From: Clostridia bacterium
Lineage (GTDB): Bacteria > Bacillota > Clostridia > TANB77 > UBA1234
Length of the DNA: 64,000 nt
Direction: 5' to 3'
Assembly (NCBI GenBank): GCA_017518295.1
Contig: JAFWVJ010000022.1
Coordinates: 19,614 to 83,613, forward strand
Position numbers and translations under genes: made by a program. The notes beneath the pieces are model-generated. The model was not told the origin of the DNA. It was given only the letters and a program-made list of their open reading frames with translations, and did no database searches. Each line of letters starts with the position of its first letter. Position 1 is the stretch's first letter. Of the stretch, positions 1 through 27,900 are shown in pieces.

Positions 1-354
1 AGCACGGACGAAATTGTTAAACTCAAAGAGACAGCTGTTACGATGGGATTTAGTTATCCAAGGATGTTGCTTCATTGCTTAATTCCTTACATCACACCAT
101 CGCTTGTTGCGTCATTCATCAATTTGTACGCAGTAGGCTGGACCTATGTGGTTATTGCTGAAACAAACAATACACAATATGGTCTTGGACATCTCATGTA
201 TATAGGTGGTGCTCGAGGAAAAACAGCAATGGTTTTTGCAGCAATCATTACGTTGTTTGTTTTTAGCAAACTTTTCAATATGATTGCAACGTGGATAACT
301 CGAAAGATTTTCAAATGGAGGATCGAAGATGAAAAAAAGAGTGTTACGGCTTGA
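1..354 (+). CDS. ABC transporter permease (TauC/SsuC-like inner-membrane component), 5' end cut by window edge
   Basis: Open frame from position 1 with no in-window start; hydrophobic C-terminal permease segment; immediately followed by and overlapping an ABC ATPase gene. Confidence 0.7.
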   Translation, partial: STDEIVKLKETAVTMGFSYPRMLLHCLIPYITPSLVASFINLYAVGWTYVVIAETNNTQYGLGHLMYIGGARGKTAMVFAAIITLFVFSKLFNMIATWITRKIFKWRIEDEKKSVTA

Positions 355-1105
355 TAACATCAGCCTATCATTTGGCGAGAATGAACTCTTTGCCAATATG
401 GATTATGAATTCAAGCCTGGCATTTATGCTTTTTCCGGTCCTTCAGGAGTTGGAAAAACCACATTGATGCGCATGATTGCCGGACTTGAAAAAAGGTATC
501 AGGGAACCATTAGCATCGAAAAAGATGTTGAAAAGAAACTTGATAGTACTCAGCCTGAGTATAGTTTGTTTGGGATTGATCAAATGATTGTCAGTGAAAG
601 GTCTATCATCGAGAAACCTATTCCTGAGATTCATATGGTACATCAACACTATAAAAGTTTTCCGTGGCTTACATGCATAAATAATGTTTTGATGGTATAC
701 AAAGGTCACAAGGTTAGACCGACAGCTAAAGATAGAGAAGAAGCTTTAGAAGTTCTCGATAGACTCGGAATTAAAGAGCATGCAAAAAAATTGCCCACTC
801 AGATTTCCGGTGGACAAGATCAGCGTTTATCACTCGCAAGTGCTTTTGTGAATAAGTGGAGTGATGTAGTACTCTACGATGAACCTACATCTGCACTTGA
901 TGAACAGAATGATATGCTGGTTGTTAATCTTATCAGAGAACATCAAGCTAAATATAATACCATCGAAATTATTATTACTCATGAGCAACACGTTATTGAT
1001 GCACTTAATCCCACGATAATTGAGTTTACGCCAGAGTTTAGGTTAAGACCTTCAAAACCTAAAAAGGAGGTAGCAGAAAATGAAGCTGTTCAAACAGTTT
1101 TATAA
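329..1105 (+). CDS. ABC transporter ATP-binding protein (nitrate/sulfonate/taurine type)
   Basis: Walker A GPSGVGKTT, ABC signature LSGGQ, Walker B LYDEPTSALD; RBS GGAGG 7 nt upstream of ATG. Confidence 0.9.
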   Translation: MKKRVLRLDNISLSFGENELFANMDYEFKPGIYAFSGPSGVGKTTLMRMIAGLEKRYQGTISIEKDVEKKLDSTQPEYSLFGIDQMIVSERSIIEKPIPEIHMVHQHYKSFPWLTCINNVLMVYKGHKVRPTAKDREEALEVLDRLGIKEHAKKLPTQISGGQDQRLSLASAFVNKWSDVVLYDEPTSALDEQNDMLVVNLIREHQAKYNTIEIIITHEQHVIDALNPTIIEFTPEFRLRPSKPKKEVAENEAVQTVL

Positions 1106-1814
1106 GTATTTTATTATTCTGTTTAGTTTAATTCTTTTTATCGTTTTGAGAATCGCTTTTGGTAGTAATATCTTCATCTATATTCTGACTGCCCTGATTG
1201 GCGTTGCTCTTTATTATGGTATTTCATTCTACTTCGATTACAAACAAAAAGAGTTGGAATCGAGTTATGAATATCAGAGCAAAAACATGTCAGAAAAAAA
1301 TGAAAGTGAGCTTTCTCAGATTGTAGAAAAGCTCCAGGAGATGGGCGAGAATAAATCAGGCTTTAGAAATGTCATCCTTGAGTTCTTGAGTAAAGTTGAT
1401 TCTTTTGTTCAAAAAGAAAAAGCACTTAATGAACTCATTCAGATGAATGATGATAAAGCTAAGAGATTTTTGCAAGAACGTAGTCAGGCTACAAATAGTT
1501 TTATTATTGCTAACGCAAAGAAACTTATCAAAGCCATGATTGCATATGATGCACAGTCTAAGAAAAATCGTCCTGCCAGGATTGAAGATGTAGAGATTGT
1601 TCAGGATGTGCTTAAGAGCATGGACAGTCTCACTACAAACTACGATCAGCTTTTGGAAGAAGTTGCTAAAATGGGTGATGACTTTAATCCAGAAGATCCA
1701 GGTTTAAGAGATGTTGTCGAAAATCTTCAAGAGATAAGAAAAACTTCTAACGTCGACGACAGCGATAACGAACCAGAAGAAATTCATCTTTTTGTTAATG
1801 GAGCGTCAAGCTAA
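1080..1814 (+). CDS. XpaC-like membrane protein (5-bromo-4-chloroindolyl phosphate hydrolysis protein family), two N-terminal TM helices plus coiled coil
   Basis: RBS AAGGAGG before ATG; two TM helices followed by a long charged helical region typical of the XpaC family, which co-occurs with TelA. Confidence 0.45.
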   Translation: MKLFKQFYKYFIILFSLILFIVLRIAFGSNIFIYILTALIGVALYYGISFYFDYKQKELESSYEYQSKNMSEKNESELSQIVEKLQEMGENKSGFRNVILEFLSKVDSFVQKEKALNELIQMNDDKAKRFLQERSQATNSFIIANAKKLIKAMIAYDAQSKKNRPARIEDVEIVQDVLKSMDSLTTNYDQLLEEVAKMGDDFNPEDPGLRDVVENLQEIRKTSNVDDSDNEPEEIHLFVNGASS

Positions 1815-1843
1815 CTCGCGGTTTTTTTGAAGGAGTGATAATC

Positions 1844-3337
1844 ATGAAGAATAGAAAGACACGGATCTTAGGTCTTGTTGTGATTGTAGTTATCCTTTGT
1901 GTAGGAATGATTGGAGCAGATAAAATTATTTCTGCTGTCCACAAAGAACCTGCCAAGCCCTACAATCCGAATGACGTTAAAGAAGTTACAATTTCGCTTG
2001 ATGAATGGATCGGATGGAAACCTTTGATTTATGCCAATGGTGGTTTAACAACTACTCAAGATAGTATCAATGCAAGAAATGGTATCAGAGTTCGTTACGT
2101 AGTAATGAATGATGCAAGTACTTCTTCTGCTGGGCTCATCTCTGGAGAACTTCAAGGTGCAGGTTATACAGTTAACCGTTATGCATTCTTGCAGAACAAA
2201 TTTGATGATGCCGGTGTAGAAGTATCAATGCCTTACATCACTAACTATTCAAATGGTGGTGATGGTATCATTTCAAAAGCTTCTATCAAGTCTGTAAAAG
2301 ATCTTGTCGGAAAAAAGGTTGCTGTTCCGAGATTTTCTGAAGCACAAACTTTGGTTGAATGGTTAATCACCAACGCCGGGTTGACTGAAGAAGAAATCTT
2401 GAGTATTCGTAAGAACATGGTTTACTTCGAGACAGCTGATGACACTGCGGAAGCATTCTTTGCTGGAAGCGTAGATGCGGCTGCTACCTGGGAACCTTAT
2501 CTTACACAGGCAGCAAGTTCCACTAATTCGAGAATTTTGTTCGATACATCTATGGGAACAAATCTTATCTTGGATGGACTTGTTTTCAGAAAAGATTTTA
2601 TAGAACAAAATGAAGACTTTATCGTGAAACTGATTGATGGTGCACTCGAAGCAAACAGCATGTACTTGAGAGAATTTGAATCCATTAAAGTTATGCCTAT
2701 GTTTGAACTTATGGATGCAGATGAAATCAAAGAGATGTGTGCTAACGCTTCAGTTGCAACCTGGGCAGATAACATGAATCTTTTGAATACAACTGCTGTA
2801 ACTATCTACAAAGATATGGCCAACATTTGGATTTCGGTTGGAGAAACTGCAAAACCTGAAAAGGCAGAAACAGCTTTTACAACCAAGTATGTAGAAGCTC
2901 TGCAAGCTAAATATCCAAATGATGATGTTACTTCTTTTGCTTTTTCAAGTGAAGGAAGACAAGCTGCACAGCAGATTAATAACAATTCTGCACTGCTTTC
3001 AGTAAGACTCGATATCAAGTTTGAAACAGACTCTTACAAAATCTCTAGTGATTCTTTTCCTGCACTTGTTGAATTTGCAGAAACTGCTAAAGTGCTAAAC
3101 GGTGTATATATCCAGATAGAGGGAAACACCGCAAAAGTAGATGGCGATGATGGTAAAGACTTCTCGTACAAGAGAGCAAGAAGCGTTGCAAAATATCTGC
3201 AAGCTCTTGGAATTGATTCTCGTAGATTTATTATCATAGGTAATGGAGATACTAATCCTATCGATACAAATCTTACTGAAGAAGGCAAGGCCAACAATCG
3301 TCGTACTGAAGTATTCTTCAAAACAATAGGTTACTGA
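1844..3337 (+). CDS. Membrane-anchored ABC substrate-binding protein (NMT1/SsuA-like) fused to a C-terminal OmpA-like peptidoglycan-binding domain
   Basis: N-terminal TM anchor; periplasmic-binding-protein core; C-terminus has OmpA motifs (NGDTNPID... NNRRTEV). Start moved to ATG 1844 (RBS GAAGGAG, spacing 8). Confidence 0.7.
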   Translation: MKNRKTRILGLVVIVVILCVGMIGADKIISAVHKEPAKPYNPNDVKEVTISLDEWIGWKPLIYANGGLTTTQDSINARNGIRVRYVVMNDASTSSAGLISGELQGAGYTVNRYAFLQNKFDDAGVEVSMPYITNYSNGGDGIISKASIKSVKDLVGKKVAVPRFSEAQTLVEWLITNAGLTEEEILSIRKNMVYFETADDTAEAFFAGSVDAAATWEPYLTQAASSTNSRILFDTSMGTNLILDGLVFRKDFIEQNEDFIVKLIDGALEANSMYLREFESIKVMPMFELMDADEIKEMCANASVATWADNMNLLNTTAVTIYKDMANIWISVGETAKPEKAETAFTTKYVEALQAKYPNDDVTSFAFSSEGRQAAQQINNNSALLSVRLDIKFETDSYKISSDSFPALVEFAETAKVLNGVYIQIEGNTAKVDGDDGKDFSYKRARSVAKYLQALGIDSRRFIIIGNGDTNPIDTNLTEEGKANNRRTEVFFKTIGY

Positions 3338-3428
3338 TAACTTTCATGTAGCGGATGTCCAAAAGGATGAAATGACATCCGCTACTTTTTTTGAGGTTTT
3401 TCAATCACCGAAATGGAGGTATAAGGAA

Positions 3429-5102
3429 ATGAAGAATCGGAAAATTACTATTCTTGCCATGCTTGTCGTGTTTGTTTTGATGCTTTCAGGATGCGAACTT
3501 GGTACTTCAACCAAGATTGATCCTGCCGCTGTTAACTACGACAATGTCATTTCATATATCGATGACCTGAAAATCGGCCTTTCAAAAGTAACCCCTGTTA
3601 AAGGAACTGTTCCTGAAAGAGCAGCTACTAATGATACAAGCACGATGGTCATGTATGAGCTTCCGGATATCTCAAGTTATGATCCAGTTGTAATTGGTAA
3701 GGCACCTAACAATGTTGAAGTGTTTTTACCTCTCGAAGATAACAATAGTAAAATCAGCCAAGTTGTAGAAAGTGCTGCGCGTAAGTATAACGAAGAACAT
3801 GAAGGTGTTTCTTCTATAACTCTGCGCATCCTTGAATCTGAACTTGCAAACGATTTTATTAAATCAGGAGCTTATCTTCCTAAGGGCTACATTGCCTCGA
3901 ATGAACTCTATGGCTTGATGCTCAAAGAAAATGGAATCAAAGTCAGTAAAGTTACAGATAGGCTTGTGGGAAATACAATTGGTGTAGTAATCAAGAAAGA
4001 ATCCAGTAACAAGATTAAGATTGAAGATCCTGAAAAAATGTTTGATTCAATCTTCAAATCAGTAATGAATGGCGAGATTAAGATTGGATATCCCAATCCT
4101 ACAAACAATCCGTCAGGACTTAATTTTGTTATTTCGATGCTTTCGTACTTTGATAGCACGAATCCTTTCAGCATGGAAGCAACTACAGACTTTAGCGCAT
4201 TCCAAAGTAAAGTATCAGTTGCATACTCTACAAAGCAGCTTAAAGAATCTGCAAATAGAGGAGAAACAGATGGCTTTGTGATGGAATATGAAGCTTTCCA
4301 AAACGATGCTTCGCTTAAGGACTACGGATTCGTTCCGTTTGGTGTACGTCATGATTATCCGCTGTATGCAGTGGGTGATGTGAGTGAAGCAGAAACGAAA
4401 GTACTTAGCGAGTTTGCCAAAGTATTTGAAGAAACAGGTGTCAAAGAAATGGCAACAGAAGCTGGATTTGATAAAAATGAAAACTACAAATCTAGCGTGA
4501 ATGCTGGTGCTTATGATGGCTTGATTGGTGAAGTGCTTGATTTCTTCAAGACTGAAAAGAAGTCGGGTAAGAAAGTTGCTGTATTTTTTGTATGTGACAA
4601 ATCTGGAAGTATGGCTGGTAAAAAGATTAATGCCCTAAAAGAATCTGCTCTTAATGCTATGCAGTATATAGGAGAAGACAATCTTGTAGGACTAATTACT
4701 TACGATAGTGGTGTATATCTGAACCTGCCTCTTGCAGAGTTTAATACCGAACAGCAGGAATTCTTCGCAGGAAGTATTCAGCAGCTTGGTAGTGGTGGAG
4801 GTACTGCAACAAACAATGCATTGCTTCATGCACTTAAACTGCTTGATGGCTACTACAGAGAACATCCTGATACTATCCCGATGATTTTCCTTTTGAGTGA
4901 TGGCTATACCGAAAGTGGATATTCATTAAGCGGTGTAAAGTGTCTGATTAGTGCTTTTGATATTCCGATTTATACAATCGGTTATGAAGCCAATCTCGAT
5001 GAACTTAAATCTATTGCAAATATCAATAATGGTGTATTTATTAATGCATCTACAGATGATGTAGGATATATTCTTAAATCTCTGTTTGATGCTCAAACCT
5101 AA
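3429..5102 (+). CDS. Lipoprotein with C-terminal von Willebrand factor A (vWA) domain
   Basis: Lipobox LSGC after signal peptide; MIDAS motif DKSGSM, downstream GGGT and LSDG motifs; start at ATG 3429 with GGAGG RBS. Confidence 0.75.
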   Translation: MKNRKITILAMLVVFVLMLSGCELGTSTKIDPAAVNYDNVISYIDDLKIGLSKVTPVKGTVPERAATNDTSTMVMYELPDISSYDPVVIGKAPNNVEVFLPLEDNNSKISQVVESAARKYNEEHEGVSSITLRILESELANDFIKSGAYLPKGYIASNELYGLMLKENGIKVSKVTDRLVGNTIGVVIKKESSNKIKIEDPEKMFDSIFKSVMNGEIKIGYPNPTNNPSGLNFVISMLSYFDSTNPFSMEATTDFSAFQSKVSVAYSTKQLKESANRGETDGFVMEYEAFQNDASLKDYGFVPFGVRHDYPLYAVGDVSEAETKVLSEFAKVFEETGVKEMATEAGFDKNENYKSSVNAGAYDGLIGEVLDFFKTEKKSGKKVAVFFVCDKSGSMAGKKINALKESALNAMQYIGEDNLVGLITYDSGVYLNLPLAEFNTEQQEFFAGSIQQLGSGGGTATNNALLHALKLLDGYYREHPDTIPMIFLLSDGYTESGYSLSGVKCLISAFDIPIYTIGYEANLDELKSIANINNGVFINASTDDVGYILKSLFDAQT

Positions 5103-5104
5103 TC

Positions 5105-5172
5105 GTAACGGCGACTATTAGTCGCCAAACAATAAAAAACTCCGTGAGAAATTTCTCACGGAGCTTTTTTTA
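5105..5172. terminator. Bidirectional intrinsic terminator (two hairpins) between convergent vWA lipoprotein and TelA genes
   Basis: ggcgactattagtcgcc; ctccgtgagaaatttctcacggag plus T7, with an A-run on the other side. Confidence 0.8.
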
Positions 5173-5887
5173 GATTAACAAGAGTTTGTTTTGCACTAAC
5201 AATGTTGTTTATTGAAATTTGATTTTTCAAAAGTGGAATAGTAACGTTTATGATAGTACTAATTCGTTCTAGCACTCTAGTATCTGTTGCAAGGAGCATT
5301 TCAACTTGTGCAATATTTTGCATTACAACAGTACGAGAAACTGCTAAGTTATTAAGCCGCCTTCTAAATGTATCAAGATGTTGGAATGTTTTTGGAGTTT
5401 CTTCAAATTGTGCAATTCTTTTTTGACCAGCTAATATATAAAGAGAAATTTCTTTATAATATTTTTTGTTGGTCTTAAGAATCTTTTTAAGAAAATCCAT
5501 GTCTTGCATAATAGTAAGTTGATAGTCACGTAGCCTTGCAATAATCTCTTCAATGTTATTTTTGATTTTGTTGTACTCAATTATTAAAGTATTTGTAGCA
5601 TTTCTTTTAATAAATCCGATTGGACTATTTAAAGAAGCACTATCTGTCCGCAAAGAATTAAAACTTGCAGTTAAGCTCTCAAAAATTCTATCGATATCTT
5701 CTAAGTCTTTTGTTTTTATCTGACTTAAAATTTTATCACTAGATTCTGAAAGTTTCTTTTGCGGTTCCATACCATAATTAAGCACTAAGTTAAGATCAAA
5801 AATATCAATTTGTGGAACAAGATTATAGGCAAGGGAGAGCTCTTGCTCAGTAAATTCACTCTCATCAATTAGTATCACATCTGCCAC
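5156..5887 (-). CDS. TelA/KlaA-family toxic-anion-resistance protein
   Basis: Coiled-coil protein with TelA-like N-terminal region; GTG start with GGAGG RBS at spacing 8; size like KlaA (about 250 aa). Confidence 0.6.
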   Translation of the reverse strand: MADVILIDESEFTEQELSLAYNLVPQIDIFDLNLVLNYGMEPQKKLSESSDKILSQIKTKDLEDIDRIFESLTASFNSLRTDSASLNSPIGFIKRNATNTLIIEYNKIKNNIEEIIARLRDYQLTIMQDMDFLKKILKTNKKYYKEISLYILAGQKRIAQFEETPKTFQHLDTFRRRLNNLAVSRTVVMQNIAQVEMLLATDTRVLERISTIINVTIPLLKNQISINNIVSAKQTLVNLKKAP

Positions 5888-6061
5888 TTTTATTTCCTCC
5901 TTAATAGAAAAGGTTGATATATCAATATATTATTCACGCATATAATATCATAGATTTACATAAATAGCAATACAACAAGAGTCATTTGTAAACGAAATTA
6001 TGTAAAATATTTTAACGGTTGCAACAAATTGATTTTACGTAACCTTTGGTACAAGCGACAA

Positions 6062-6088
6062 ATGTTTTTAATAAAATATTAAAAACAT
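6062..6088. promoter_or_regulatory. 27-bp perfect palindrome (12-bp arms, 3-bp spacer) in the TelA / kinase-like divergent promoter region; candidate operator
   Basis: atgtttttaata-aaa-tattaaaaacat; 13 bp upstream of the -35 of promoter 6101-6129; outer arms match those of the ~30-bp element family. Confidence 0.55.
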
Positions 6089-6100
6089 TTCAAAAATCGG

Positions 6101-6129
6101 TTGACAAATTGCATTATGCATGGTATAGT
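6101..6129 (+). promoter_or_regulatory. Sigma-A-type promoter for 6199..7275
   Basis: TTGACA-17 bp-TATAGT. Confidence 0.7.
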
Positions 6130-6198
6130 CTTCATGTATTAAAAATAGTTACTCTTTGAATTGTGTACGATTCATTAATTATAAGGGAGGATACTTTT

Positions 6199-7275
6199 AT
6201 GAGGCTTCGGGGCTACCAAGAAATCATGGGTGCTAATCGACCAGAAGAAATCTTTACTATGAATCCTGCTACTTTGCAAAAAGAATATGAAGCATATTGT
6301 GAGCAGTATAAACCGAACCAACAATTTCATGAGATAAGAAATTTTGTTGCAAGTCAGCAAATAAAATTTCTTTTCAAAAAAGCAAAAGAAATTCTTGGTT
6401 CTAAGAGGGAAGATACTGATGACTATGGTTCTACTATTTCGCTTTGCTCTGCAAATGGAGAAAGCATCGTCTTTGAATATGATGATCATATGGATCAGAG
6501 AGTATGTGATACATACATCAATGATCAAGAAATTCTTATGACTGTTGATTCAAAGTACGAAGTAAAAGGATTGTTTTCAAACTTTGTTGAAAAAGTTGAA
6601 GAGTTTATTTCTACTTGGGAGAACAAACTTCCAAACTGGAAAGATTTTCAGTATTCTATTCCACAAGTTGTTAAGTCTTTTAGAACTTCGGATAAATCCA
6701 AATATGTACTGCTTATTAAAAAGCCGTGCAAGATTTATCCTTTAAGAGAAGTACTTAACTTCTTTGGTGGAAGGATGAATGTGAAGCATGTGATTTCTAT
6801 CATCAAGCGGCTTTATAGTTATGCTTGTTGGTTGGATATTGCAGGTATGACTCACAATGGTATCTGTATAGACAATATTTACTTTTCTCCGGGAAGTGAA
6901 GTTGCGCCAGGCGAGAAATATTCTGTTAAAGATATTAGAATAGTTGGCTTGTATGGCGGATGGTTTTTCACCACAAGTAAGAATGAAAAAATTACTGCAC
7001 TTCCTATGGATGTAAGAGATATTGTTCCTGAGTTTGTCGAAAAGACAGGATACTCTTCTTTTGAAGTAGATATGCTTTCCATTAAGAAAGTTGCTCGAGA
7101 ACTTTTAGGTGATGTTACAGGCAAAAACTTGTATGGTGTTCATAGCAAACTTTGCGATTGGTTCAATAGAACCACTTGTCAAAAGAATGCTTATGAGGAG
7201 TACAGCGAATTCGAAAGAATTTGCGAAGAGGTTTTTGGTAAAGCTAGATTCGTCGATATCGACGTTTCTATATAA
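6199..7275 (+). CDS. Hypothetical protein with atypical protein-kinase-like catalytic-loop motif
   Basis: Strong sigma-A promoter TTGACA-17-TATAGT and RBS AAGGGAGG; motif HNGICIDNIYF resembles kinase catalytic loop HxDxxxxN, preceded by a VLLIKK lysine strand; no clear DFG. Confidence 0.5.
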   Translation: MRLRGYQEIMGANRPEEIFTMNPATLQKEYEAYCEQYKPNQQFHEIRNFVASQQIKFLFKKAKEILGSKREDTDDYGSTISLCSANGESIVFEYDDHMDQRVCDTYINDQEILMTVDSKYEVKGLFSNFVEKVEEFISTWENKLPNWKDFQYSIPQVVKSFRTSDKSKYVLLIKKPCKIYPLREVLNFFGGRMNVKHVISIIKRLYSYACWLDIAGMTHNGICIDNIYFSPGSEVAPGEKYSVKDIRIVGLYGGWFFTTSKNEKITALPMDVRDIVPEFVEKTGYSSFEVDMLSIKKVARELLGDVTGKNLYGVHSKLCDWFNRTTCQKNAYEEYSEFERICEEVFGKARFVDIDVSI

Positions 7276-7310
7276 GCTGCCTCAAAATAATTTAAAAGGA
7301 GGAATTTTAA

Positions 7311-8267
7311 ATGGGTGGCAGTCCTACTACATCTGCTCAGGTGAGCTCCTACTATAATACGCACAAGGATATTAAGAAGGCTACAAGTGTGCGGGAAGTA
7401 TTTAAGTCGAGTGGTCTGAATGAACTTATGGATCCTTCGAAACTGAAGAATGGATTCAGGGATTCCAGCGACTCCGTGGAAAGCCCCAACTCTCGGGCTA
7501 TTGCTATCGGATTTGATGAGACCGGTTCCATGGGACATATTCCTTTCACATTCGTGCAGGATGGTTTCCCGAGGTTCATCAATATGATTCAGGGTGGAGC
7601 CCTGGGATATGATCCTCACATTCTCTTCGCCGCGATTGGCGATGTGAAGAGTGATGATTCTCCGCTCCAGGTTTCGCAGTTTGAAGCGGACAACCGTATG
7701 CTGGATCAGCTTCGGCTTTTCTACATCGAAGGAAACGGCGGCGGAAATGATGGTGAAAGCTATCAGATTCCGTGGTACTTCCTGGCCAAGCATACCAAGA
7801 TTGCATGCTTCAACAAGAGGGCCCAGAAAGGTATCTACATTTCTATCGGCGATGATAAGCCGCACCCGGAGACAACTGTGTATCAGTTCAAAAAAATCTT
7901 CGGTGACAAAGAAAGTGTAGAAAGAGCCTACAAGACAACCGAGCTTCGCGATATGGCACTGGAAAAATGGAATCTTTTCCATGTGCTTATTTCCGAACGC
8001 GGATACGGTAGTTACCATGTGGAAGAAACCTGGAAGAGGCTTCTTGGAAATCACATCGTTATCCTGGATGATCACAGGTATGTTGCTGAAGTTTTGGCAA
8101 CCATTCTCAAGATGCAAAATGGTGTTGAGCGCAATGAAGCAATCGACATGATTGAAGACACCGATGCAAAGAAGGTTGTGCGCAGTGCCTTCAAGAATTT
8201 TGAAATCTATGAAGATGGTGCTACCGGAATCGGCGAAGCCACCAAGGAAGGTCTGGAATTCATTTAA
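7311..8267 (+). CDS. vWA-like (TerY-like) domain protein, G+C-rich gene
   Basis: RBS AAAGGAGG; MIDAS-like FDETGSMG, GNGGGNDGES and SIGDD motifs; composition clearly more G+C-rich than flanks. Confidence 0.6.
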   Translation: MGGSPTTSAQVSSYYNTHKDIKKATSVREVFKSSGLNELMDPSKLKNGFRDSSDSVESPNSRAIAIGFDETGSMGHIPFTFVQDGFPRFINMIQGGALGYDPHILFAAIGDVKSDDSPLQVSQFEADNRMLDQLRLFYIEGNGGGNDGESYQIPWYFLAKHTKIACFNKRAQKGIYISIGDDKPHPETTVYQFKKIFGDKESVERAYKTTELRDMALEKWNLFHVLISERGYGSYHVEETWKRLLGNHIVILDDHRYVAEVLATILKMQNGVERNEAIDMIEDTDAKKVVRSAFKNFEIYEDGATGIGEATKEGLEFI

Positions 8268-8353
8268 TCAAATGATACAAAAGAGAAGATGATGATTTTA
8301 TCATCTTCTCTTATTCTTCTTTTAAATTCTTTTTAAGGAAAGGAGAATTTATT

Positions 8354-9586
8354 GTGGTAAAGTCGTGCTCCATAGTTATTGGAGCTGGTCTCGGTGATGA
8401 AGGAAAAGGCCATTATACAGATATTTTGTGTAACAAACCGAACACACTTAATATTCGTTTTAATGGTGGACCGCAAGCAGCACACACTGTGGTGACTCCT
8501 GATGGAATGAAACATGTATTTCGGCATTTAGGAGCAGGGACCTTCACTGGTGCAACCACATATTTGAGTGCAGACTTTTTGATTAATCCTATCGAGTTTG
8601 TGATGGAGAAAACAAAGTTCATTAGAAAGTTTAAATATAATCCTACAGTAATTGTGAATTTGAATTCTCCAGTAACAACTCTTTACGATATGTATATCAA
8701 TCAAGCAGTGGAAGAGTATCGCGACAAATCCCGTCATGGAAGTTGTGGTATGGGCATTTGGGAAACTTGTGAGAGAAACAATAACCCAATGTTTAAAATC
8801 ACTGTAAGAGAGTTGTCTTTTAAAGAAATCTTGAGAGAAAAGCTTAAGAGGATAAGAGACATCTATGTGCCAAAGAGATTGAAAGAAGAGTATGGAATAG
8901 AAATTACCGATTTGGTAAATCTTTCTAAAGATTATCCATCTTTACTTGTAAGCGATGAGACAATCGATATGTTTTTATTCTATGCTGAAGAATTTTTGTC
9001 GATGGTAATAGTAAGAGATGACTCTATCATCAATAGTTTTGAAAACTTGGTATTTGAAGGTGCTCAAGGATTGGGACTTGATGAAAACAATCCTGATTGC
9101 AGTGTGGATTTTCTCACTCCATCAACTACAGGTGTTACAAATGCAATGAGAATTCTTAAGACTGCAAAGTATAAAGGAGAACCGGATATTTATTATATTA
9201 GTCGACCTTATGCCACAAGACATGGTATGGGACCTCTGGAACATGAAGTAGGGAAAACTCCTTACAAGAAGGTTTTAGATGAGACTAATGTAAAAAATGA
9301 ATATCAAGGAGAATTAAGATTTGCTTACATAGATTTTGATATACTTGCTAGAAGAATCAAAAGAGATATCCAAAAAATCAGTATTCCTTCCACTATAAAC
9401 ATTGGATTCACGTGTTTGGATCAGCTAGATGAACCTGTCGGAATTAGCGAAGGTGGAATTCTTATTAATAATCGCTCTGCAGATTTTATTAATAAGGCAA
9501 CTAACTATTTTAGAAAAGCTATTCCGAGTATAAATGGTTTTTCTGGAACGTATGGACTGACACGAGATGAATTTGAAGAATTTTAA
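8354..9586 (+). CDS. Divergent adenylosuccinate-synthetase (PurA)-like ligase
   Basis: GTG start with AAGGAAAGGAG RBS; PurA-like motifs GDEGKGH and RFNGGPQAAHTV but diverged from canonical GDEGKGK/GGHNAGH. Confidence 0.7.
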   Translation: MVKSCSIVIGAGLGDEGKGHYTDILCNKPNTLNIRFNGGPQAAHTVVTPDGMKHVFRHLGAGTFTGATTYLSADFLINPIEFVMEKTKFIRKFKYNPTVIVNLNSPVTTLYDMYINQAVEEYRDKSRHGSCGMGIWETCERNNNPMFKITVRELSFKEILREKLKRIRDIYVPKRLKEEYGIEITDLVNLSKDYPSLLVSDETIDMFLFYAEEFLSMVIVRDDSIINSFENLVFEGAQGLGLDENNPDCSVDFLTPSTTGVTNAMRILKTAKYKGEPDIYYISRPYATRHGMGPLEHEVGKTPYKKVLDETNVKNEYQGELRFAYIDFDILARRIKRDIQKISIPSTINIGFTCLDQLDEPVGISEGGILINNRSADFINKATNYFRKAIPSINGFSGTYGLTRDEFEEF

Positions 9587-9596
9587 ATTCAAAAAT

Positions 9597-9640
9597 AAAT
9601 ACCGCTATGCAAAATTTGCATAGCGGTATTATTTTTATTT
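9597..9640. terminator. Bidirectional intrinsic terminator
   Basis: ataccgctatgcaaaatttgcatagcggtat plus T-run. Confidence 0.8.
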
Positions 9641-9901
9641 GGTTGTATAGGAAAGACCATTTCCCAAAGACATAGTCATGCCTCGATTGGTATTGAAGGT
9701 AGTTCCATTGGGGAGCACGTAGCTGATTGAAGTAAGTCCTTTTTTGCTGTAGTTTGCATAGATTTTGGTCTTTGCAGACTTAAGTTTTGCACCGCAATCG
9801 GGGCAATAACAGCAATCCTGAGAGAATACTTTTTTACAAGCATCACAACTCATAAGGACCGTTTCACTCAGAAGCTGGCGTGCCTTATAGTTGATTCCCA
9901 T
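9635..9901 (-). CDS. Small zinc-ribbon protein
   Basis: CDAC...CYCPDCG Cys pairs; shares a bidirectional terminator with the upstream gene. Confidence 0.5.
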   Translation of the reverse strand: MGINYKARQLLSETVLMSCDACKKVFSQDCCYCPDCGAKLKSAKTKIYANYSKKGLTSISYVLPNGTTFNTNRGMTMSLGNGLSYTTK

Positions 9902-9923
9902 TGTCTTACTCCTTCAAAAATAA

Positions 9924-11606
9924 TCAGCGGGGCATAACGGCCGTTGCCTTTTTCTTGGCAGGAGCCTTCTTGGCGGGCACGGCAGGAGCAGCGGGAGCAG
10001 GTTCAGCAGTGGGAGCAGCAGCCTTATTTACCAGGCCGTTTCCGCAGTAGGGACAGAACTTGGCTTCTTCAGGCACTTCTTTGCCACACGCTTTGCACAC
10101 ATTGGCGCCGATCTTGGCACCGCACTTGTGGCAGAACTTTGCGCCGTCCTTCAGAGGTTCCCCACACTTGGGACACACATTGCCGGCTGCTTTGACTTCG
10201 CCACCACATTCGGTGCAGAACTTGACTTCGGGATCATCGAACTTTTTGCCGCAAGAAGTGCAGACATACTGTCCAGGCACAGCGGCGGCCGCGGCTGCGG
10301 GAGCACCGATTCCGGGAATCACGGAAGTAATTCCGTTCATCATATCACCCAGCGGGTTGGCATTGTTGCCACCACCCAGCAGGTTGGAAAGCAGAGTGAT
10401 CTTCATGAAATCATTCATTCCGCCTTCACCGCCATCGCCCATCATCATCATCATCATCATGATGTTGGGGCTGCCATCGGGATTGGTGATACCCAGGCTG
10501 CCGTCTTTGGAAGCCATCAGCATAGGCAGGAACATACCCAGGCCGTTGAAGCTGTCATCGTTGATGTCATCCAGGCTGAACTCAGCCTTGTCATTGTCCA
10601 TCATCTTCATCATCAGCATAGCGCCCAGGACATTGCCGCCCATGTTCTGCTTGGAGTTCGGATCCAGCAGGGTCTTACCATCGAAGGCGATAACTTCAGT
10701 GTAGAAGTTGAAGTCAGGGATCAGGGAGTCGTTGTTCACGAACGTTTCGATAGCACCAGTCTGGGCATTCACGCCAGTGAAGGTGTTATCATTGTTGATG
10801 CTCTGCACCCAGTAGTACTTGCCATCACGCTTGGTCAGCTTGCCCACGGTCAGGTTCTTAACCGGAACCACGATAATGGGGAAGTTACCCAGCTTCAGAT
10901 TCAGCATATCCTTACGGGTGCGGGTCGCGGGGTCGAAAGCATACCATTTTCCGTTTTCGGGATTCTGAACGACGATGCCGGTCAGAGTGGACTTGATCCG
11001 AGGATCCTTGTTGATACCCATTTCCATACCAGAGAAGAGCTTACCGAAACCTTTCATACTAAATCCTCCTTTATTATCCTCAATGCCGTGATATACGGCA
11101 AGAGCTTCTTTGACTTCGTTCAGTTTAAACTGAACTACACAAGTGACGGAACCTTTGTTGAAGTACATGCTGCTGTTGGGAGTAAGTTTGTTAATACCAA
11201 TACATACTTCTTTTTGACTGCAGTAAGGAAACTGCTGACAATCACGTGCTGAGAGCCAATTGGTACTAACATTCACATCAAAGCTAATATAGTCCGACTT
11301 ACGAGCAAGAACTTTTTCGAGCTGTTCGATAAATTCATTGATAGTAAACTCAACAGTTTCAAAGTAAACATGCTGATGAGGACAAAAACTAGAAAAGTTA
11401 ATCAAAAGCTTGTTGGGTTCTCCTGTCGGAATAGTAGTACGAATATTACCAGACCAAAACCGAACAAGAGAATTATCAAAGAATGGAGTAGTGCACGGAC
11501 TTCTACTGTTTACCTCAACCTGATTTGATGGACCATGAGTATAAAGGTCGAACATCCATCTTGTGGGTACAAGTTTCCGGATCAGAGAAGTATCACCCTT
11601 GGACAT
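9924..11606 (-). CDS. Large protein: unknown N-terminal domain, poly-Met/Gly low-complexity linker, four C-terminal zinc-ribbon (CxxCG) repeats, Ala/Pro/Lys tail
   Basis: RBS AGGAGGG before ATG; CxxCG...CxxCG x4; (ATG)7 trinucleotide run encodes MMMMMMM; the C-terminal half is strikingly G+C-rich. Confidence 0.7.
   Translation of the reverse strand: MSKGDTSLIRKLVPTRWMFDLYTHGPSNQVEVNSRSPCTTPFFDNSLVRFWSGNIRTTIPTGEPNKLLINFSSFCPHQHVYFETVEFTINEFIEQLEKVLARKSDYISFDVNVSTNWLSARDCQQFPYCSQKEVCIGINKLTPNSSMYFNKGSVTCVVQFKLNEVKEALAVYHGIEDNKGGFSMKGFGKLFSGMEMGINKDPRIKSTLTGIVVQNPENGKWYAFDPATRTRKDMLNLKLGNFPIIVVPVKNLTVGKLTKRDGKYYWVQSINNDNTFTGVNAQTGAIETFVNNDSLIPDFNFYTEVIAFDGKTLLDPNSKQNMGGNVLGAMLMMKMMDNDKAEFSLDDINDDSFNGLGMFLPMLMASKDGSLGITNPDGSPNIMMMMMMMGDGGEGGMNDFMKITLLSNLLGGGNNANPLGDMMNGITSVIPGIGAPAAAAAAVPGQYVCTSCGKKFDDPEVKFCTECGGEVKAAGNVCPKCGEPLKDGAKFCHKCGAKIGANVCKACGKEVPEEAKFCPYCGNGLVNKAAAPTAEPAPAAPAVPAKKAPAKKKATAVMPR
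10440..10460 (-). repeat. (CAT)7 / (ATG)7 trinucleotide microsatellite inside a coding sequence (poly-Met)
   Basis: catcatcatcatcatcatcat on the top strand, encoding MMMMMMM in 9924..11606. Confidence 0.8.
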
Positions 11607-11779
11607 GTAATCCCTCCTAAAAAATATTTGTCTCTTAAAAGAGACACCGATTAAGTATCATTACGTGAATATTTATACCATGGATTTTACGTTATGTCAA
11701 TATGTTTTTATTAAATAAAAAATAAAAAATGCCGAAATTTCAATATTTTGAAACTTATTAACAAAATATTAAAAACAGC

Positions 11780-11809
11780 TTGACAAATATTATGTTGTTT
11801 TGATATTAT
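11780..11809 (+). promoter_or_regulatory. Sigma-A-type promoter for 11948..12685, preceded by the shared upstream sequence aaaatattaaaaaca
   Basis: TTGACA-17 bp-ATATTA (or 18 bp-TATTAT); 15-nt identity with 6073-6087. Confidence 0.55.
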
Positions 11810-11947
11810 AGAAATGTTATTAACATTTTGAGAATAACATAAGTGCTGATATATCTTGATAATTATGTTAACGCGTGATATAATCGCGTAGCAAAATATA
11901 GTTTTTTGGGTTACCCTTATCTATTTTGAAAGGAGACAAAAACTGGT

Positions 11948-12685
11948 ATGATGGATCCAACTTGGCAAGCAATAATTGGTGTAACAGCACCTATTGTTGT
12001 AATAACTATTCTTGTTTGTTTAACTTCTTACTTTGATAATGGTTGGGTTCTTGGAATTGGTTTTATTGTTTATTTTGTAGGAACATTTTTACTAGCCTGG
12101 CTAGTAGGTCAATCTAATATAGACTTCGTAAGAGAATATCCGTTTAAAAATATTTGTTTTGCATCTTTGATACAACTTGCAATTATGTTTGTCACACTTC
12201 ATGTCTCAGCTTTTATTGAGGAAATGTTTTGCTCTAGTGAGGGGACAGGTTTTGTTAGTTCTTTTATTGTGATTACTATTATAGTTGCAATAATATCTGC
12301 AGCACTTATTAGTAATCACATCAAGACTTTAGATAGAGAGTTTGTAGAAACAGATGAAGTGGTTGAAGTTAGATACGAACTTTCTAGTGATGAAGATGGT
12401 AAGTTTATTTATTATGCATCTAAAAGTGCAACAGAAGAAGGATACTACTTAGTTATCTATAAAGAAAATAATGAATTCAAAACTATGAAAATAAAAGAAT
12501 CTAAACTTTCTATTTTGGATTCTGTTGAATCAGATGAAAAGAATTTTCTTATAGAGAAAAAAGCAATTCATAAAAAGCAATGCACCAACGATGATTCATT
12601 TAAAACAGAAACAAAAGTTGATACTACATATATGATATATGTGCCAGGTGGTGCAGCTAATATAGGATTTGTTACTGCAAAATAA
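11948..12685 (+). CDS. Membrane protein (4 TM) with soluble C-terminal domain
   Basis: Promoter TTGACA-17-ATATTA upstream; RBS AAAGGAG; hydropathy. Confidence 0.6.
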   Translation: MMDPTWQAIIGVTAPIVVITILVCLTSYFDNGWVLGIGFIVYFVGTFLLAWLVGQSNIDFVREYPFKNICFASLIQLAIMFVTLHVSAFIEEMFCSSEGTGFVSSFIVITIIVAIISAALISNHIKTLDREFVETDEVVEVRYELSSDEDGKFIYYASKSATEEGYYLVIYKENNEFKTMKIKESKLSILDSVESDEKNFLIEKKAIHKKQCTNDDSFKTETKVDTTYMIYVPGGAANIGFVTAK

Positions 12686-12725
12686 AAAGAAAATATATTT
12701 TTGAATTATAATCTAATTTAAGCTT

Positions 12726-12756
12726 AAAAGCAGGGAAGTATTCCCTGCTTTTTTCG
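12726..12756 (+). terminator. Intrinsic terminator
   Basis: gcagggaagtattccctgc plus TTTTTT. Confidence 0.8.
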
Positions 12757-12817
12757 TTGAAAAAAATATATGCTTTATATATAATAAAATCGCAGATTAA
12801 AGTGTGGAGGAGTGCTA

Positions 12818-13117
12818 ATGAATCAGATTAAAAGAATTGAAATCATGGAAGAAAAATATATTAAATCTCAAAAAGCTATTAAAGAATTAAATAAAGCTTT
12901 GAAAGAATATAGCAAAGCTCAAGATAGTATTCGAGAATTGGCATCATATTATTCTAGCCCAGAATGGAAAAAAGATTTTTTAGATGATGAAAAAGGAAGG
13001 CTTCCAAAAGAATTAAAAAGGGGAGTGCTTTCAGAAGATGGAGTATATAATTTATTAGATGATAATATAGAAATGCAAAAGAAGTTGTGTAGAACGGTAG
13101 AAAAAAGCATATCATAA
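12818..13117 (+). CDS. Small coiled-coil protein (DUF4298-like)
   Basis: ATG 12818 with GGAGG RBS at spacing 7 is preferred over the GTG 12812 used by the ORF track. Confidence 0.5.
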   Translation: MNQIKRIEIMEEKYIKSQKAIKELNKALKEYSKAQDSIRELASYYSSPEWKKDFLDDEKGRLPKELKRGVLSEDGVYNLLDDNIEMQKKLCRTVEKSIS

Positions 13118-17120: not shown

Positions 17121-18447
17121 ATGGAAAAAAATGATGTTAAGCTAGTGCTAGATGTTAATGAAAAGCCAAAAGCCATACAATGGATTTTCTTAAGTATACA
17201 ACACGTATTTGCAATGTTTGGTGCAACAGTGCTTGTGCCATTATTAGTTAATCAAGGAGTAGTGGAACAAGGCGGAAGTGAATTTTTATCGACCTCAGTA
17301 ACTTTAGTTGCTGCAGGAATAGGTACTTTATTATATATACTTTGTACAAAAGGAAAGTCTCCTGTGTTTTTAGGAAGTTCATTTGCATTTATAACACCAC
17401 TAATAGTTGCTTATATGTCGGGATATGCAACTGGTAATCCAAAAGATGGAGCAGCTGCTGCATTAACTCGGAATAATGGTGGTAGGATTAGTTTATGTAG
17501 TAGTTTCATTTTTGATTCGATTAATAGGAAAAAAATGGATTGCAAAGCTTTTGCCACCTATAGTAATTGGCCCGATGATTATGATAATTGGTCTTGGATT
17601 ATCTAGTTCTGCAATAAAAAATATTGGAATTGGATCAGGGACTGAAGTTTTAGACTATAAAGGGATTATAGTTGCATTTATTACATTTGTAGTTACAGTT
17701 TTGATGCTAGTAAAAGCAAAAGGATTTTTTAAAGTAATTCCATTTTTAGTTGGTATTTTAGCAGGATATTTAACATCAATAGTTTTAGGTATGGTAGATT
17801 TTACAACTGTGTCACAAGCAGCCTGGATCCAAGTACCAAATTTTCAAATTCCATTTATTAGCTACACACCAAACCTAATGGTTGCATTAACTATGGCACC
17901 AATTGCACTAGTAACTATGGCTGAGCATATAGGAGATCATACAGCACTTAGTACTATAATTGGAAAAGACTTATTAAAAGAACCAGGATTAGAAAGAACT
18001 TTGCTAGGTGATGGAGTAGCGACTTTTGTAGCAGGTTTAATTGGTGCTCCAGCAAATACAACTTATGGAGAAAATACATCAGTAGTTGGAATGACAAAAA
18101 TTGCATCAGTTTGGGTAATAGGACTTGCAGCAATTTTTGCAATAATATTTGGATTCTTAGGAAAGTTAATTGCAGTAATTCAAACTATACCAAATCCTGT
18201 TTTGGGTGGAATATCACTTTTGCTATATGGATTTATAGCAGTAAATGGTTTAAAGATATTAATTCAAAATCAAATAGATTTTGGAAAAACAAGAAATGTA
18301 ATTATTGCATCTAGTATGCTTGTAATAGGTTTAGGAGGTGCTGTAATTACAATTGCAACAGGTGGAAATATGTCTATACCAATTTCGGGAATGACATTAG
18401 CTGCAATAGTAGGAATAATACTAAATAAATTATTGCCAGAAGAATAA
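17121..18447 (+). pseudogene. uraA: Uracil permease (NCS2 family), reading frame broken by a +1 shift near 17466-17476
   Basis: ORFs 17121..17606 and 17476..18447 are two halves of a single UraA/PyrP-like protein; each frame turns to nonsense past the junction. Confidence 0.7.
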
Positions 18448-26274: not shown

Positions 26275-27900
26275 ATGAAAAAAATAATTCCAGCAGTTTT
26301 AGTTGTAATAGTTATTGTGGTGGTTGCAATTGTGGTTATGCTTAACAATGCAAATAAAGAAACAATTATTAACACATCAGGAGAAATTATAGAAAAAATT
26401 GAGAACACTTTTGGTGAGGAGAATAAAGAAGAGGAAGTAGAATATAATCCACAGTATGATACTTTGGATGAATATCTAAATGACACAAAATGGCTTTCTA
26501 AACTATATATACCATATTATGCAATGCGAAATGATTTATACTCAACATATGATTGGGATTATGAATATTTAACAAAGCCACAAATAGTGAGCTATGTTAA
26601 AGCAGCAAATGATATTGCTCTTGTTAAAGTACATGTTTTAGAAGAAGAAGTTCGAGATGAATACTATATTGTAGGACTTGAAAATGGAAAAATAAAAATA
26701 GCAAAAATTCCAGAAGATTATGATTGCATTAAACTACCAGAACAGGTAGGTATAAAATTATGTTATGATAAGTCTAATAATGTTTTTAAATATATTTTAG
26801 AAGGTGAAGACTATTACTATGAGGATATTTTTACTTTAGATGGATTTAATGTAAATATTATTAGTCAAGGAAACTCTTTGCCATCAGGAGATTATCATTT
26901 TGAAGATATTGATAGCAATCAATGTGAAATAGAAAATCCTTATCCGCTCAGGTATAGCAAAGAAGGTCGTTACATAGGGGAAAATTTTGAGGGAAAATAT
27001 TTTTGGAAATATGATAATTTAATTAGATATATTAATGAAACAACTAAAGATGATTACACAGATTTTATTAACAAAAACCGTAATAACTTAAAAGATTTTG
27101 CTGCAAGTCATGTAAATTATTCTTATGAACATTATAATGGTGAACGTGCACTGGACGATAGTTTAATTGATGACATTTTGGAACGTGATGGAGATTCTGC
27201 TGGATATATTGAACAAATAACTAACTATGATAGCGCCTTACCAGTAAATTGGAAAGTAGATTTTAAATTTGCAGCTATATTATATAATTTACCATTTTAT
27301 ATGGAGAATTTAATTGTAAATGGTAAAAATTCAAATACATATAAAGGATATAAAGAAACAATTGAAAAATATAAAAATGGAACCTTAGGCAATGATGAAG
27401 AACAAGAGTTTTATAAAAACTTTGATTTAGAAAAATTTATGCAAGATATAGCAAATGACAAAAAATTGAATGATTTAAGAAAAAGAATTAAGACAGATGA
27501 ATATAGTGGATTTACTTTTGAAGAAGAAGCATATTGTACAGCTGTGTATTCGGATTTATTTCAATATATGCCACCAAATCCTTCTGAAAAATACTATAAG
27601 GTTTTTTCGATTACCTTTATGAACGGAAAAAGCGATTCAATAGATGATTATTATGACAATGCTAGAGCGAAGAAAATAAAAATAAAAATAAATGATTGGG
27701 AAAAAGAAATAATTCTTAAAGATACTCCTGAATATCAAAATGTTTGGATAAATTGGGAATCAAAAGGTGATGAATATCAAAAACCAGTTACAGTATCAAT
27801 TGAAGTTTTGGAAAAATATGATGGCGATATAACAGATGATGTGTATTTCTCAGGCATATATATTAATAAAGATCAAAACTTTGTAAGTTTTGCAATTTAA
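26275..27900 (+). CDS. Membrane-anchored secreted protein, paralog family A (longer member)
   Basis: N-terminal and leader DNA nearly identical in layout to 24689; conserved YLND and DGFNVNII blocks. Confidence 0.7.
   Translation: MKKIIPAVLVVIVIVVVAIVVMLNNANKETIINTSGEIIEKIENTFGEENKEEEVEYNPQYDTLDEYLNDTKWLSKLYIPYYAMRNDLYSTYDWDYEYLTKPQIVSYVKAANDIALVKVHVLEEEVRDEYYIVGLENGKIKIAKIPEDYDCIKLPEQVGIKLCYDKSNNVFKYILEGEDYYYEDIFTLDGFNVNIISQGNSLPSGDYHFEDIDSNQCEIENPYPLRYSKEGRYIGENFEGKYFWKYDNLIRYINETTKDDYTDFINKNRNNLKDFAASHVNYSYEHYNGERALDDSLIDDILERDGDSAGYIEQITNYDSALPVNWKVDFKFAAILYNLPFYMENLIVNGKNSNTYKGYKETIEKYKNGTLGNDEEQEFYKNFDLEKFMQDIANDKKLNDLRKRIKTDEYSGFTFEEEAYCTAVYSDLFQYMPPNPSEKYYKVFSITFMNGKSDSIDDYYDNARAKKIKIKINDWEKEIILKDTPEYQNVWINWESKGDEYQKPVTVSIEVLEKYDGDITDDVYFSGIYINKDQNFVSFAI

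Follow-up and report, generated by a model that had tools for sequence, protein, structure and literature searches.

The DNA studied here is a 64,000-nucleotide stretch (the window) of contig JAFWVJ010000022.1 from the Clostridia bacterium assembly GCA_017518295.1. The genes in its first 11,606 nucleotides had been gathered by the first-pass annotation into a single candidate stress or conflict system of the Ter/TelA type. Comparison with related genomes makes it very probable that this region consists instead of two unrelated modules, A (window start to 5887) and B (6101-11606), which are neighbours by chance, and that within module B a pair of genes, encoding a divergent von Willebrand factor A (vWA) protein and a ligase of the PurA family, is conserved. 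The surroundings are those of a low-G+C Clostridia chromosome, and proteins identical to those of the window were found in rumen and gut metagenome assemblies and in one metagenome-assembled genome (MAG) labelled 'Clostridia bacterium'.

Module A extends beyond the start of the window: in the independent metagenome contig L001 the remainder of the first gene is preceded by an additional gene for a fusion of a substrate-binding protein (SBP) with an OmpA domain. Within the window the forward strand encodes, in order, the C-terminal part of an ATP-binding cassette (ABC) importer permease (1-354; BPD_transp_1, E = 1.7e-6; 261 amino acids for the whole gene in L001); the transporter ATPase (329-1105; ABC_tran, 6.6e-23; 34% identity to gp245 of Bacillus phage G); a 244-residue protein with two N-terminal transmembrane (TM) helices and a helical tail (1080-1814; no significant family match); a membrane-anchored fusion of an NMT1/SsuA-type SBP with OmpA (1844-3337; OmpA, 4.5e-14; NMT1, 3.6e-9; phrog_25518, 1.5e-166; 50% identity to phage G gp249); and a lipoprotein in which an SBP-like domain is combined with a vWA domain at the C-terminus (3429-5102, with the start as in L001; VWA, 5.3e-16; lipobox LSGC in the translation). 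A short TelA protein of 243 residues is encoded convergently on the reverse strand (5156-5887; 118.7 bits against a Pfam cut-off of 30, E = 3.9e-34, profile positions 4-239 of 332), and a bidirectional terminator-like hairpin (5134-5169; 16-pair stem with T runs after it on both strands) stands between it and the lipoprotein gene. The family assignments previously proposed for the permease, the ATPase, the SBP-OmpA fusion, the vWA lipoprotein and the opposite-strand TelA are thus all borne out. The suggestion that the 2-TM protein is XpaC-like fails: it scored 14.8 bits against the XpaC model PF10112, where the cut-off is 29.8 (E = 0.028, over the TM region only), and hhalign gave probabilities of 3% and 0.9% with the genuine XpaC proteins of Listeria and C. 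butyricum, respectively. Its family is narrow, comprising 16 clusters, and the Pfam XpaC domain was found in none of the 16.

Module B opens with a promoter-like site on the forward strand (6101-6129; TTGACA and TATAGT at a spacing of 17, with an extended TG, 11 of 12 positions matching) and a ribosome-binding site, AAGGGAGG, ahead of the ATG at 6199. The gene that follows (6199-7275) encodes a degenerate J-like N-terminus, with KPN for HPD, fused to a protein-kinase fold that is missing the HRD and DFG aspartates. Behind it lie the genes of the divergent vWA protein (7311-8267; phrog_2971, 8.6e-43), which begins with Met-Gly and bears a metal-ion-dependent adhesion site (MIDAS) of the DxTxS type at D69/T71/S73, and of the PurA-family ligase (8354-9586; Adenylsucc_synt, 1.2e-29; phrog_1211, 7e-47), which scores neither as PurA equivalog nor as PurZ. 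A forward-strand hairpin with a 14-pair stem (8281-8312), possibly an attenuator, separates these two. Two further genes run in the opposite direction, for an 88-residue protein in whose sequence one zinc ribbon can be read (9635-9901, reverse strand) and for a 560-residue zinc-ribbon protein (9924-11606, reverse strand; DZR, 4.4e-16; Zn_Ribbon_1, 1.3e-17); they are clade-specific and occur together in 13-14 Clostridia loci. The module's two convergent transcription units share a bidirectional terminator-like hairpin (9598-9630; 15-pair stem, T runs on both strands).

The two modules part company as soon as other genomes are considered. The seven-gene block of module A (SBP-OmpA, permease, ATPase, 2-TM protein, SBP-OmpA, SBP-vWA and convergent short TelA) recurs in related Clostridia at other chromosomal sites without the genes of module B. 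Likewise, other Clostridia MAGs carry the five genes between 6199 and 11606 in surroundings unrelated to those of the window, one such place being between rplS and the RNase J gene, and TelA, ABC and SBP genes are absent beside those copies. In the MAG RGIG6952 the locus tags of the two blocks lie about 1,000 apart, and in 85 further loci with a gene like that of the module B vWA protein, TelA, the 2-TM protein and the SBP-vWA protein accompany the pair in none. It is this recurrence of each block without the other on which the two-module reading is based, and separate transcription units would agree with the hairpins at 5134-5169 and 9598-9630 and with the strong promoter-like site at 6101-6129. 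A single Ter/TelA-type system spanning 1-11606, in which TelA, XpaC and a TerY-like vWA protein act together with a kinase and a nucleotide enzyme, would draw on a TelA that is genuine, on the adjacency of the two modules in the window's species in more than 20 assemblies, and on the existence of xpaC-telA pairs as real envelope-stress clusters in Firmicutes (PMC6811118). Set against the separate sites in related genomes, the co-occurrence in 0 of 85 loci, the lack of support for XpaC and TerY, and the division of the region by terminators and a separate promoter, it is highly improbable. Of the linkages originally proposed, that of TelA with the vWA, ABC and 2-TM genes survives as a conserved block, while its extension to the kinase-like, vWA, PurA-like and zinc-ribbon genes does not. 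The reported absences were confirmed: no Pfam match to TerB, TerC or TerD appeared in ten proteins of 1-11606 or in ten sampled downstream proteins, and for PP2C there was no match in ten scanned proteins and no conserved neighbour in the 85 loci. Taken by itself, the second half of the region does have the look of a mobile module for conflict or stress. The methodological lesson is that adjacency in a single genome had fused two unrelated modules into an apparent 'Ter-like' system.

The core of module B is the divergent vWA gene followed directly by the PurA-like gene. When the best 80 loci of each scan, together with loci fetched earlier, were scored with hidden Markov models built here from sequences of the families, 78 of 81 bacterial loci had the PurA-like gene directly 3' of the vWA gene, as did 77 of 80 viral ones, and a 4-bp overlap between the two was frequent. 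Pattern scans placed relatives of the vWA gene at at least 591 sites in species-representative genomes and on 476 IMG/VR contigs, many of these viral contigs exceeding 100 kb, and the protein belongs to the large unannotated family phrog_2971 (944 clusters at E<=1e-3). Bacterial hosts of the pair include Clostridia, Cyanobacteria, Melainabacteria, Alpha- and Gammaproteobacteria, cable bacteria, Acidobacteria, Longimicrobia and, on plasmids, Actinobacteria. Among cultured phages it is carried by about 200 mycobacteriophages of the Bxz1 type (gp247 'kinase', gp248 and gp250 'adenylosuccinate synthetase'), by Vibrio phage Va1 and by T4-like phages of Rhizobium including RHph_Y65; all listed cluster C mycobacteriophages have it. 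A megablast search of positions 1-12000 against phages gave no nucleotide match. In some cluster C1 mycobacteriophages (for example NC_054721.1, 151935-152399) the match to the vWA-like gene is confined to its first half, at a site with an annotated HNH endonuclease, which suggests that in this subset a homing endonuclease was inserted into the vWA gene.

RefSeq labels the products of the first two genes of module B 'hypothetical protein', and neither the kinase-fold protein (6199-7275) nor the vWA protein (7311-8267) has a match in Pfam, NCBIfam or PADLOC. Their folds were therefore read from AlphaFold2 models built on 39-sequence alignments. For the vWA protein the model (predicted local distance difference test, pLDDT, 91) has as its top Protein Data Bank (PDB) matches only vWA domains, NorD among them, so that the fold earlier ascribed to it stands; its description as TerY-like does not, since no TerY or PADLOC model matches. 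The MIDAS residues D69, T71 and S73 and further acidic residues are invariant in the family. A Met-Gly start, within the consensus MGxGRW(D/S), is shared by 153 of 162 bacterial and viral homologues. The model of the kinase-fold protein (pLDDT 86) matches protein kinases best, the first hit being a DnaJ-PKA chimera, which upholds the kinase-like fold first attributed to it, and hhalign aligns the protein with the Bxz1 'kinase' gp247 at E = 2.5e-5. Pfam Pkinase gives no match to the window's protein. Across its family HN(A/G)I takes the place of HRD and GGW that of DFG, so that to judge from its motifs the kinase fold is probably inactive.

The position of the kinase-fold gene proves to be a slot, upstream of the pair, which holds one of three unrelated and mutually exclusive proteins. 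It is occupied by the kinase-fold protein in 57 bacterial loci (with three more ended by a contig edge, the PurA-like gene not being seen) and 22 viral ones; by a coiled-coil protein of about 120 residues in 9 bacterial loci, all from cable bacteria, and 16 viral ones; and by a Met/Gly-rich beta protein of about 236 residues in no bacterial and 16 viral loci. No recognised upstream protein was seen in 12 bacterial and 23 viral loci. Where the slot holds the kinase-fold protein, this in most lineages starts with a probable J domain that contains WHPD: the HPD motif is present in 36 of 56 bacterial and 21 of 23 viral relatives, and Pfam DnaJ scores among relatives, at 20-24.5 bits, are below the cut-off of 27.8. 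The window's protein has KPN for HPD, with predicted helices at the J position. Throughout its Clostridia clade HPD has been lost (KPN or FKPxxY) and the convergent zinc-ribbon gene pair is present; HPD alone was found in 36 loci, the zinc-ribbon pair alone in 14 and both together in none, counts which are non-independent and reflect essentially a single phylogenetic event. In two loci from Lachnospiraceae/Butyrivibrio MAGs (L068, 8754-9827, and L080) an N-terminal CxxC...CxxC zinc ribbon replaces the J domain of the kinase-fold protein.

The 560-residue protein consists of a unique N-terminal domain, a Met/Gly-rich beta domain (residues ~248-415), three CxxC...CxxC ribbons (~449-523) and an Ala/Pro/Lys tail; both proteins encoded between 9635 and 11606 do carry zinc ribbons, as first described, the number in the larger being three and not four. 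Between residues 248-415 and the phage Met/Gly-rich protein of about 236 residues there is homology (hhalign probability 91%, E = 1e-6), and intermediate sequences support the link; it connects the zinc-ribbon protein with the system and speaks against a chance neighbour. Pairwise BLAST between the zinc-ribbon and phage proteins is swamped by low-complexity Met/Gly runs, so that profile methods alone are usable here, and no Pfam match was obtained when homologues distantly related to the middle domain were scanned.

The earlier assignment of the third gene as a PurA-like ligase is borne out, at 103.8 bits against a cut-off of 27 for Pfam Adenylsucc_synt (PF00709). Its scores against the NCBIfam PurA equivalog models are far lower than required (85 bits against a cut-off of 402, and 77 against 396). 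The prokaryotic genome annotation pipeline (PGAP) names the gene adenylosuccinate synthetase. Identity with PurZ was considered and rejected, at 27.4 bits against a cut-off of 300; no chain named PurZ was present among the PDB sequence matches of the protein, and no DatZ, MazZ or DpoZ turned up among the neighbour families of the pair. The family shares with PurA and PurZ the PF00709 superfamily, the GDEGKG P-loop, the catalytic histidine motif QAGHT and FEGAQG (in the form FEGAQGLLLD), and it also retains RFNGGAQAGHTV and the TRHGAGP loop. It differs from them in an invariant RHGSCG..ET in place of the GTTGRGIGP segment, in TCLD for TKLD, and in its pairing with a vWA gene. The equivalents of T129 and R143 of Escherichia coli PurA, which in that enzyme contact the 5'-phosphate of inosine monophosphate (IMP), have been lost. 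One phage PurA-like gene (L129, 3403-5925; IMG/VR UViG_3300035181_001311) is interrupted exactly at QAGH|T by an insertion of about 440 residues, apparently an intein with a LAGLIDADG-type endonuclease, and this position argues that the motif is functionally important.

When the 143 genes that flank 79 loci most closely are considered, a single family is enriched, a regulator of the NrtR type that joins a NUDIX domain to a winged helix-turn-helix; it lies upstream of, and divergent from, the module in 17 of 85 bacterial loci. NrtR regulators sense ADP-ribose (PMC9503650). The remaining nearest neighbours are housekeeping genes and not phage or defence genes, so a prophage or defence-island context was rejected for the bacterial copies. 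In the viral loci, genes identified by sequence reading and not by a family scan as NadV-like lie within 5 kb in nine cases and as NadM/Nudix-like in six, and in phage RHph_Y65 genes of NAD salvage lie near the pair. One bacterial locus adjoins a gene for an AbiEii toxin. On plasmid pAtS4e of Allorhizobium ampelinum S4 (L178, 7330-10825) genes for an AAA ATPase, a DUF5682 protein and a DUF4132 protein, which may form a MoxR-type system, stand directly 3' of the NUDIX-regulated triad, with a VgrG gene of type VI secretion nearby. An AAA+ gene is absent from the conserved neighbourhood of the pair, and in this single locus with a downstream AAA gene the latter apparently belongs to a separate system.

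The G+C content of the region is mosaic, as was first noticed: 7311-8267 has 47% and the C-terminal half of 9924-11606 has 55%, against 30% downstream. At third codon positions (GC3) the vWA gene reaches 0.51 and the large zinc-ribbon gene 0.56 (0.65 in its C-terminal half), compared with 0.30 for the kinase-fold gene, 0.27 for the PurA-like gene and 0.13-0.20 for housekeeping genes downstream. The piecemeal horizontal acquisition proposed to account for this did not hold up, the same two genes being the GC3-rich ones in 14 of 14 orthologous Clostridia loci (L003, L012-L026), with values that are closely matched and track each other; outside the window's clade the effect is small. Because the identities of the five module B proteins fall in step, separate acquisition of the G+C-rich genes is unlikely; and since proteins only 35-45% identical should have saturated synonymous sites, the pattern points to selection or another gene-specific force behind the excess. 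This conserved, gene-specific GC3 excess is an observation in its own right. Both genes contain long antisense open reading frames (7191-8117, reverse strand, 308 amino acids; 10128-11252, forward strand, 374 amino acids), which are expected as a by-product of G+C richness, in which stop codons are fewer, and are not supported as genes.

How might such a set of genes work? The reading preferred here, which leans on analogy and to which a probability of a little under 0.4 is tentatively given, is that module B is a nucleotide ligase under the control of a chaperone adaptor and tied to NAD/ADP-ribose. The PurA-like protein would be the catalytic component, in which a nucleoside triphosphate activates a purine-type carbonyl whose oxygen is then replaced by an amine. 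Its substrate would be a purine nucleotide, and plain IMP seems an unlikely one because two of the 5'-phosphate contacts of E. coli PurA are replaced. The vWA protein might bind the ligase or its target through the metal site and serve as co-chaperone or adaptor, much as the vWA partners of MoxR ATPases do. The J domain would in most lineages recruit DnaK/Hsp70 as remodelling motor, with the alternative upstream proteins standing in for it elsewhere; in the window's clade, from which HPD has been lost, the zinc-ribbon/Met-Gly-rich protein may have assumed that role. There is precedent for vWA domains as co-chaperones, and for replacement of MoxR by Hsp70/DnaJ in some conflict systems (PMC7159879). 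The whole would help to maintain adenine-nucleotide or NAD-linked homeostasis when stress depletes nucleotides, and would be put to use by bacteria and by large lytic phages alike.

Several points weigh against this proposal. Physical interaction of the vWA protein with the ligase is presumed. Twelve bacterial and 23 viral loci, as noted, have no recognisable adaptor, and the window's own clade has neither HPD nor the NrtR regulator, so that the links to DnaK and to ADP-ribose rest on relatives. NAD salvage genes are in any case common in large phages. No riboswitch or other RNA element that might indicate a ligand was found with Rfam in positions 1-13000, and none recurs in seven related loci. 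The aspartate-binding TR(H)G loop, moreover, is kept, and the enzyme could still be an ordinary adenylosuccinate synthetase whose phosphate contacts are unusual. To go further and regard it as a mere second housekeeping purA with unrelated passengers for neighbours would suit the PGAP name and the retained catalytic motifs; strict adjacency to the vWA gene across phyla and viruses, a score of 85 bits where the equivalog requires 402, and the invariant motifs peculiar to the family make this quite improbable. About as little credit is given to a reading in which the alpha-amine of the vWA glycine, exposed by removal of the methionine, would accept a purine nucleotide through C6/N6 from the ligase, in place of free aspartate alone, as a new kind of N-terminal nucleotide modification that switches the vWA protein on or off. 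This would fit the strict pairing of the genes, their frequent translational coupling and the altered substrate pockets, and retention of the aspartate-binding TR.G loop counts against it.

Two further explanations concern the conflict between bacteria and phages. Module B might be mainly a phage device for counter-defence or auxiliary metabolism, re-aminating IMP, dIMP, ITP or deamino-NAD, or raising the supply of AMP, in the face of immune systems that deplete ATP or NAD or deaminate adenine, with the bacterial copies domesticated. The 476 viral contigs, many of them over 100 kb, the presence of the pair in every listed cluster C mycobacteriophage, the NadV-like and NadM-like genes close by in phages, the ADP-ribose-type regulator at bacterial copies, and altered 5'-phosphate contacts compatible with a substrate other than IMP all speak for this. 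It is nonetheless judged rather unlikely: the bacterial copies, which are chromosomal, do not fall short of the viral ones in number, and the proposal overlaps that of an adaptor-controlled ligase rather than competing with it. Conversely, module B might be an anti-phage abortive-infection system resembling the TerY-P triad, in which the vWA protein senses a phage protein, the kinase fold transduces the signal, and the PurA-like protein is a toxic effector that drains GTP, IMP or aspartate or makes a toxic nucleotide. The association of vWA and kinase-fold proteins is reminiscent of TerY-P, the spread across phyla, plasmids included, is patchy, and one locus lies by the AbiEii toxin gene and another by type VI secretion and MoxR-type genes. 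This is judged a distinctly unlikely explanation, given that no PADLOC model matches module B proteins, that the nearest neighbours in 79 loci are housekeeping and not defence genes, that the pair is common in large lytic phages, and that the kinase is without its catalytic aspartates and PP2C is absent.

The systems to which module B bears the closest resemblance each differ from it in defining respects. Like the TerY-P triad (TerY vWA, PP2C and Ser/Thr kinase; listed as anti-phage by PADLOC and DefenseFinder), it is a patchy, mobile three-gene operon with a cytoplasmic vWA protein beside a kinase fold; unlike that triad, it has a PurA-family ligase as its third gene and no PP2C, its kinase fold carries a probable J domain and is without the HRD and DFG aspartates, its vWA protein matches no TerY, VWA or PADLOC model, and it is common in lytic phages. 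With the pairs of MoxR AAA+ ATPases and vWA proteins (NorQ/NorD, CbbQ/CbbO and the ternary conflict systems of PMC7159879) it shares a MIDAS vWA protein beside a presumed enzyme client and a putative chaperone-recruiting partner, NorD being a top structural match; it has no MoxR ATPase, the chaperone role being filled in most lineages by a probable J domain that would recruit Hsp70, and its client would be a PurA-like ligase. In the searchable literature, which covers few subscription journals, no description was found of the vWA/PurA-like pair or of the J-kinase-fold adaptor, only phage genome announcements that list 'kinase' and 'PurA-like' genes. Because each tested defining feature of TerY-P, of MoxR-vWA pairs and of PurZ is absent, the PurA equivalog giving a mixed picture, module B is rated here as a new kind of module whose function is inferred.

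Module A is most simply regarded as an envelope module, made up of an ABC importer, two peptidoglycan-binding SBP-OmpA proteins, the 2-TM protein, an extracytoplasmic vWA lipoprotein and a short cytoplasmic TelA. The short form of TelA (224-252 residues) is present also in loci L093 and L095, and a tblastn search with TelA found genes annotated 'toxic anion resistance protein'. Giant phages (Bacillus phage G and the Prevotella Lak megaphages) encode an ABC permease, an ATPase and two SBP(NMT1)-OmpA proteins with 37-50% identity to those of the window; in phage G the gp243-250 segment (L091) includes the ABC genes and both SBP(NMT1)-OmpA genes as part of module A. No homology to the 2-TM protein or to TelA was detectable in phage G gp246-248 and gp251, so that what is shared is the ABC and SBP-OmpA part only. 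By these homologues, the transporter genes of module A can be seen to move between phages and Firmicutes in their own right. The closest analogue is the xpaC-telA (yaaN) envelope-stress cluster, of which module A is not a member. Both cluster TelA with a small 2-TM helical protein, joined in module A by envelope proteins; in module A, however, the 2-TM protein is not detectably XpaC, TelA is the short form and is convergently transcribed, the bulk of the genes encode the ABC importer, the SBP-OmpA fusions and the extracytoplasmic vWA lipoprotein, and part of the module is present in phage G.

Past 11.6 kb a Pfam scan of ten sampled downstream proteins identified genes for PBP5, a ZIP transporter, lactate dehydrogenase and a xanthine/uracil permease. 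The permease is split into two overlapping reading frames (17121-17606 and 17476-18447), and L001 shows the same split; the gene may be frameshifted or truly split. At 26275-27900 a 541-residue protein is encoded whose C-terminus weakly matches the NAD glycohydrolase translocation domain (PF25302, 7.7e-8).

If the pairing of the vWA and PurA-like genes is functional, it defines a widespread and unstudied module, present in hundreds of large phages, all Bxz1-type mycobacteriophages among them, and in hundreds of bacterial genomes that represent seven or more phyla. Module B brings the chemistry of a purine ligase together with chaperone-adaptor proteins and, in many bacteria, with a regulator of the ADP-ribose type, which would place it among the nucleotide- and NAD-centred conflicts between phage and host that have been a repeated source of new enzymology. 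It can be put to the test in tractable organisms, among them the Mycobacterium smegmatis phage Bxz1, A. ampelinum S4, Rhodococcus jostii RHA1 and Clostridium carboxidivorans P7.

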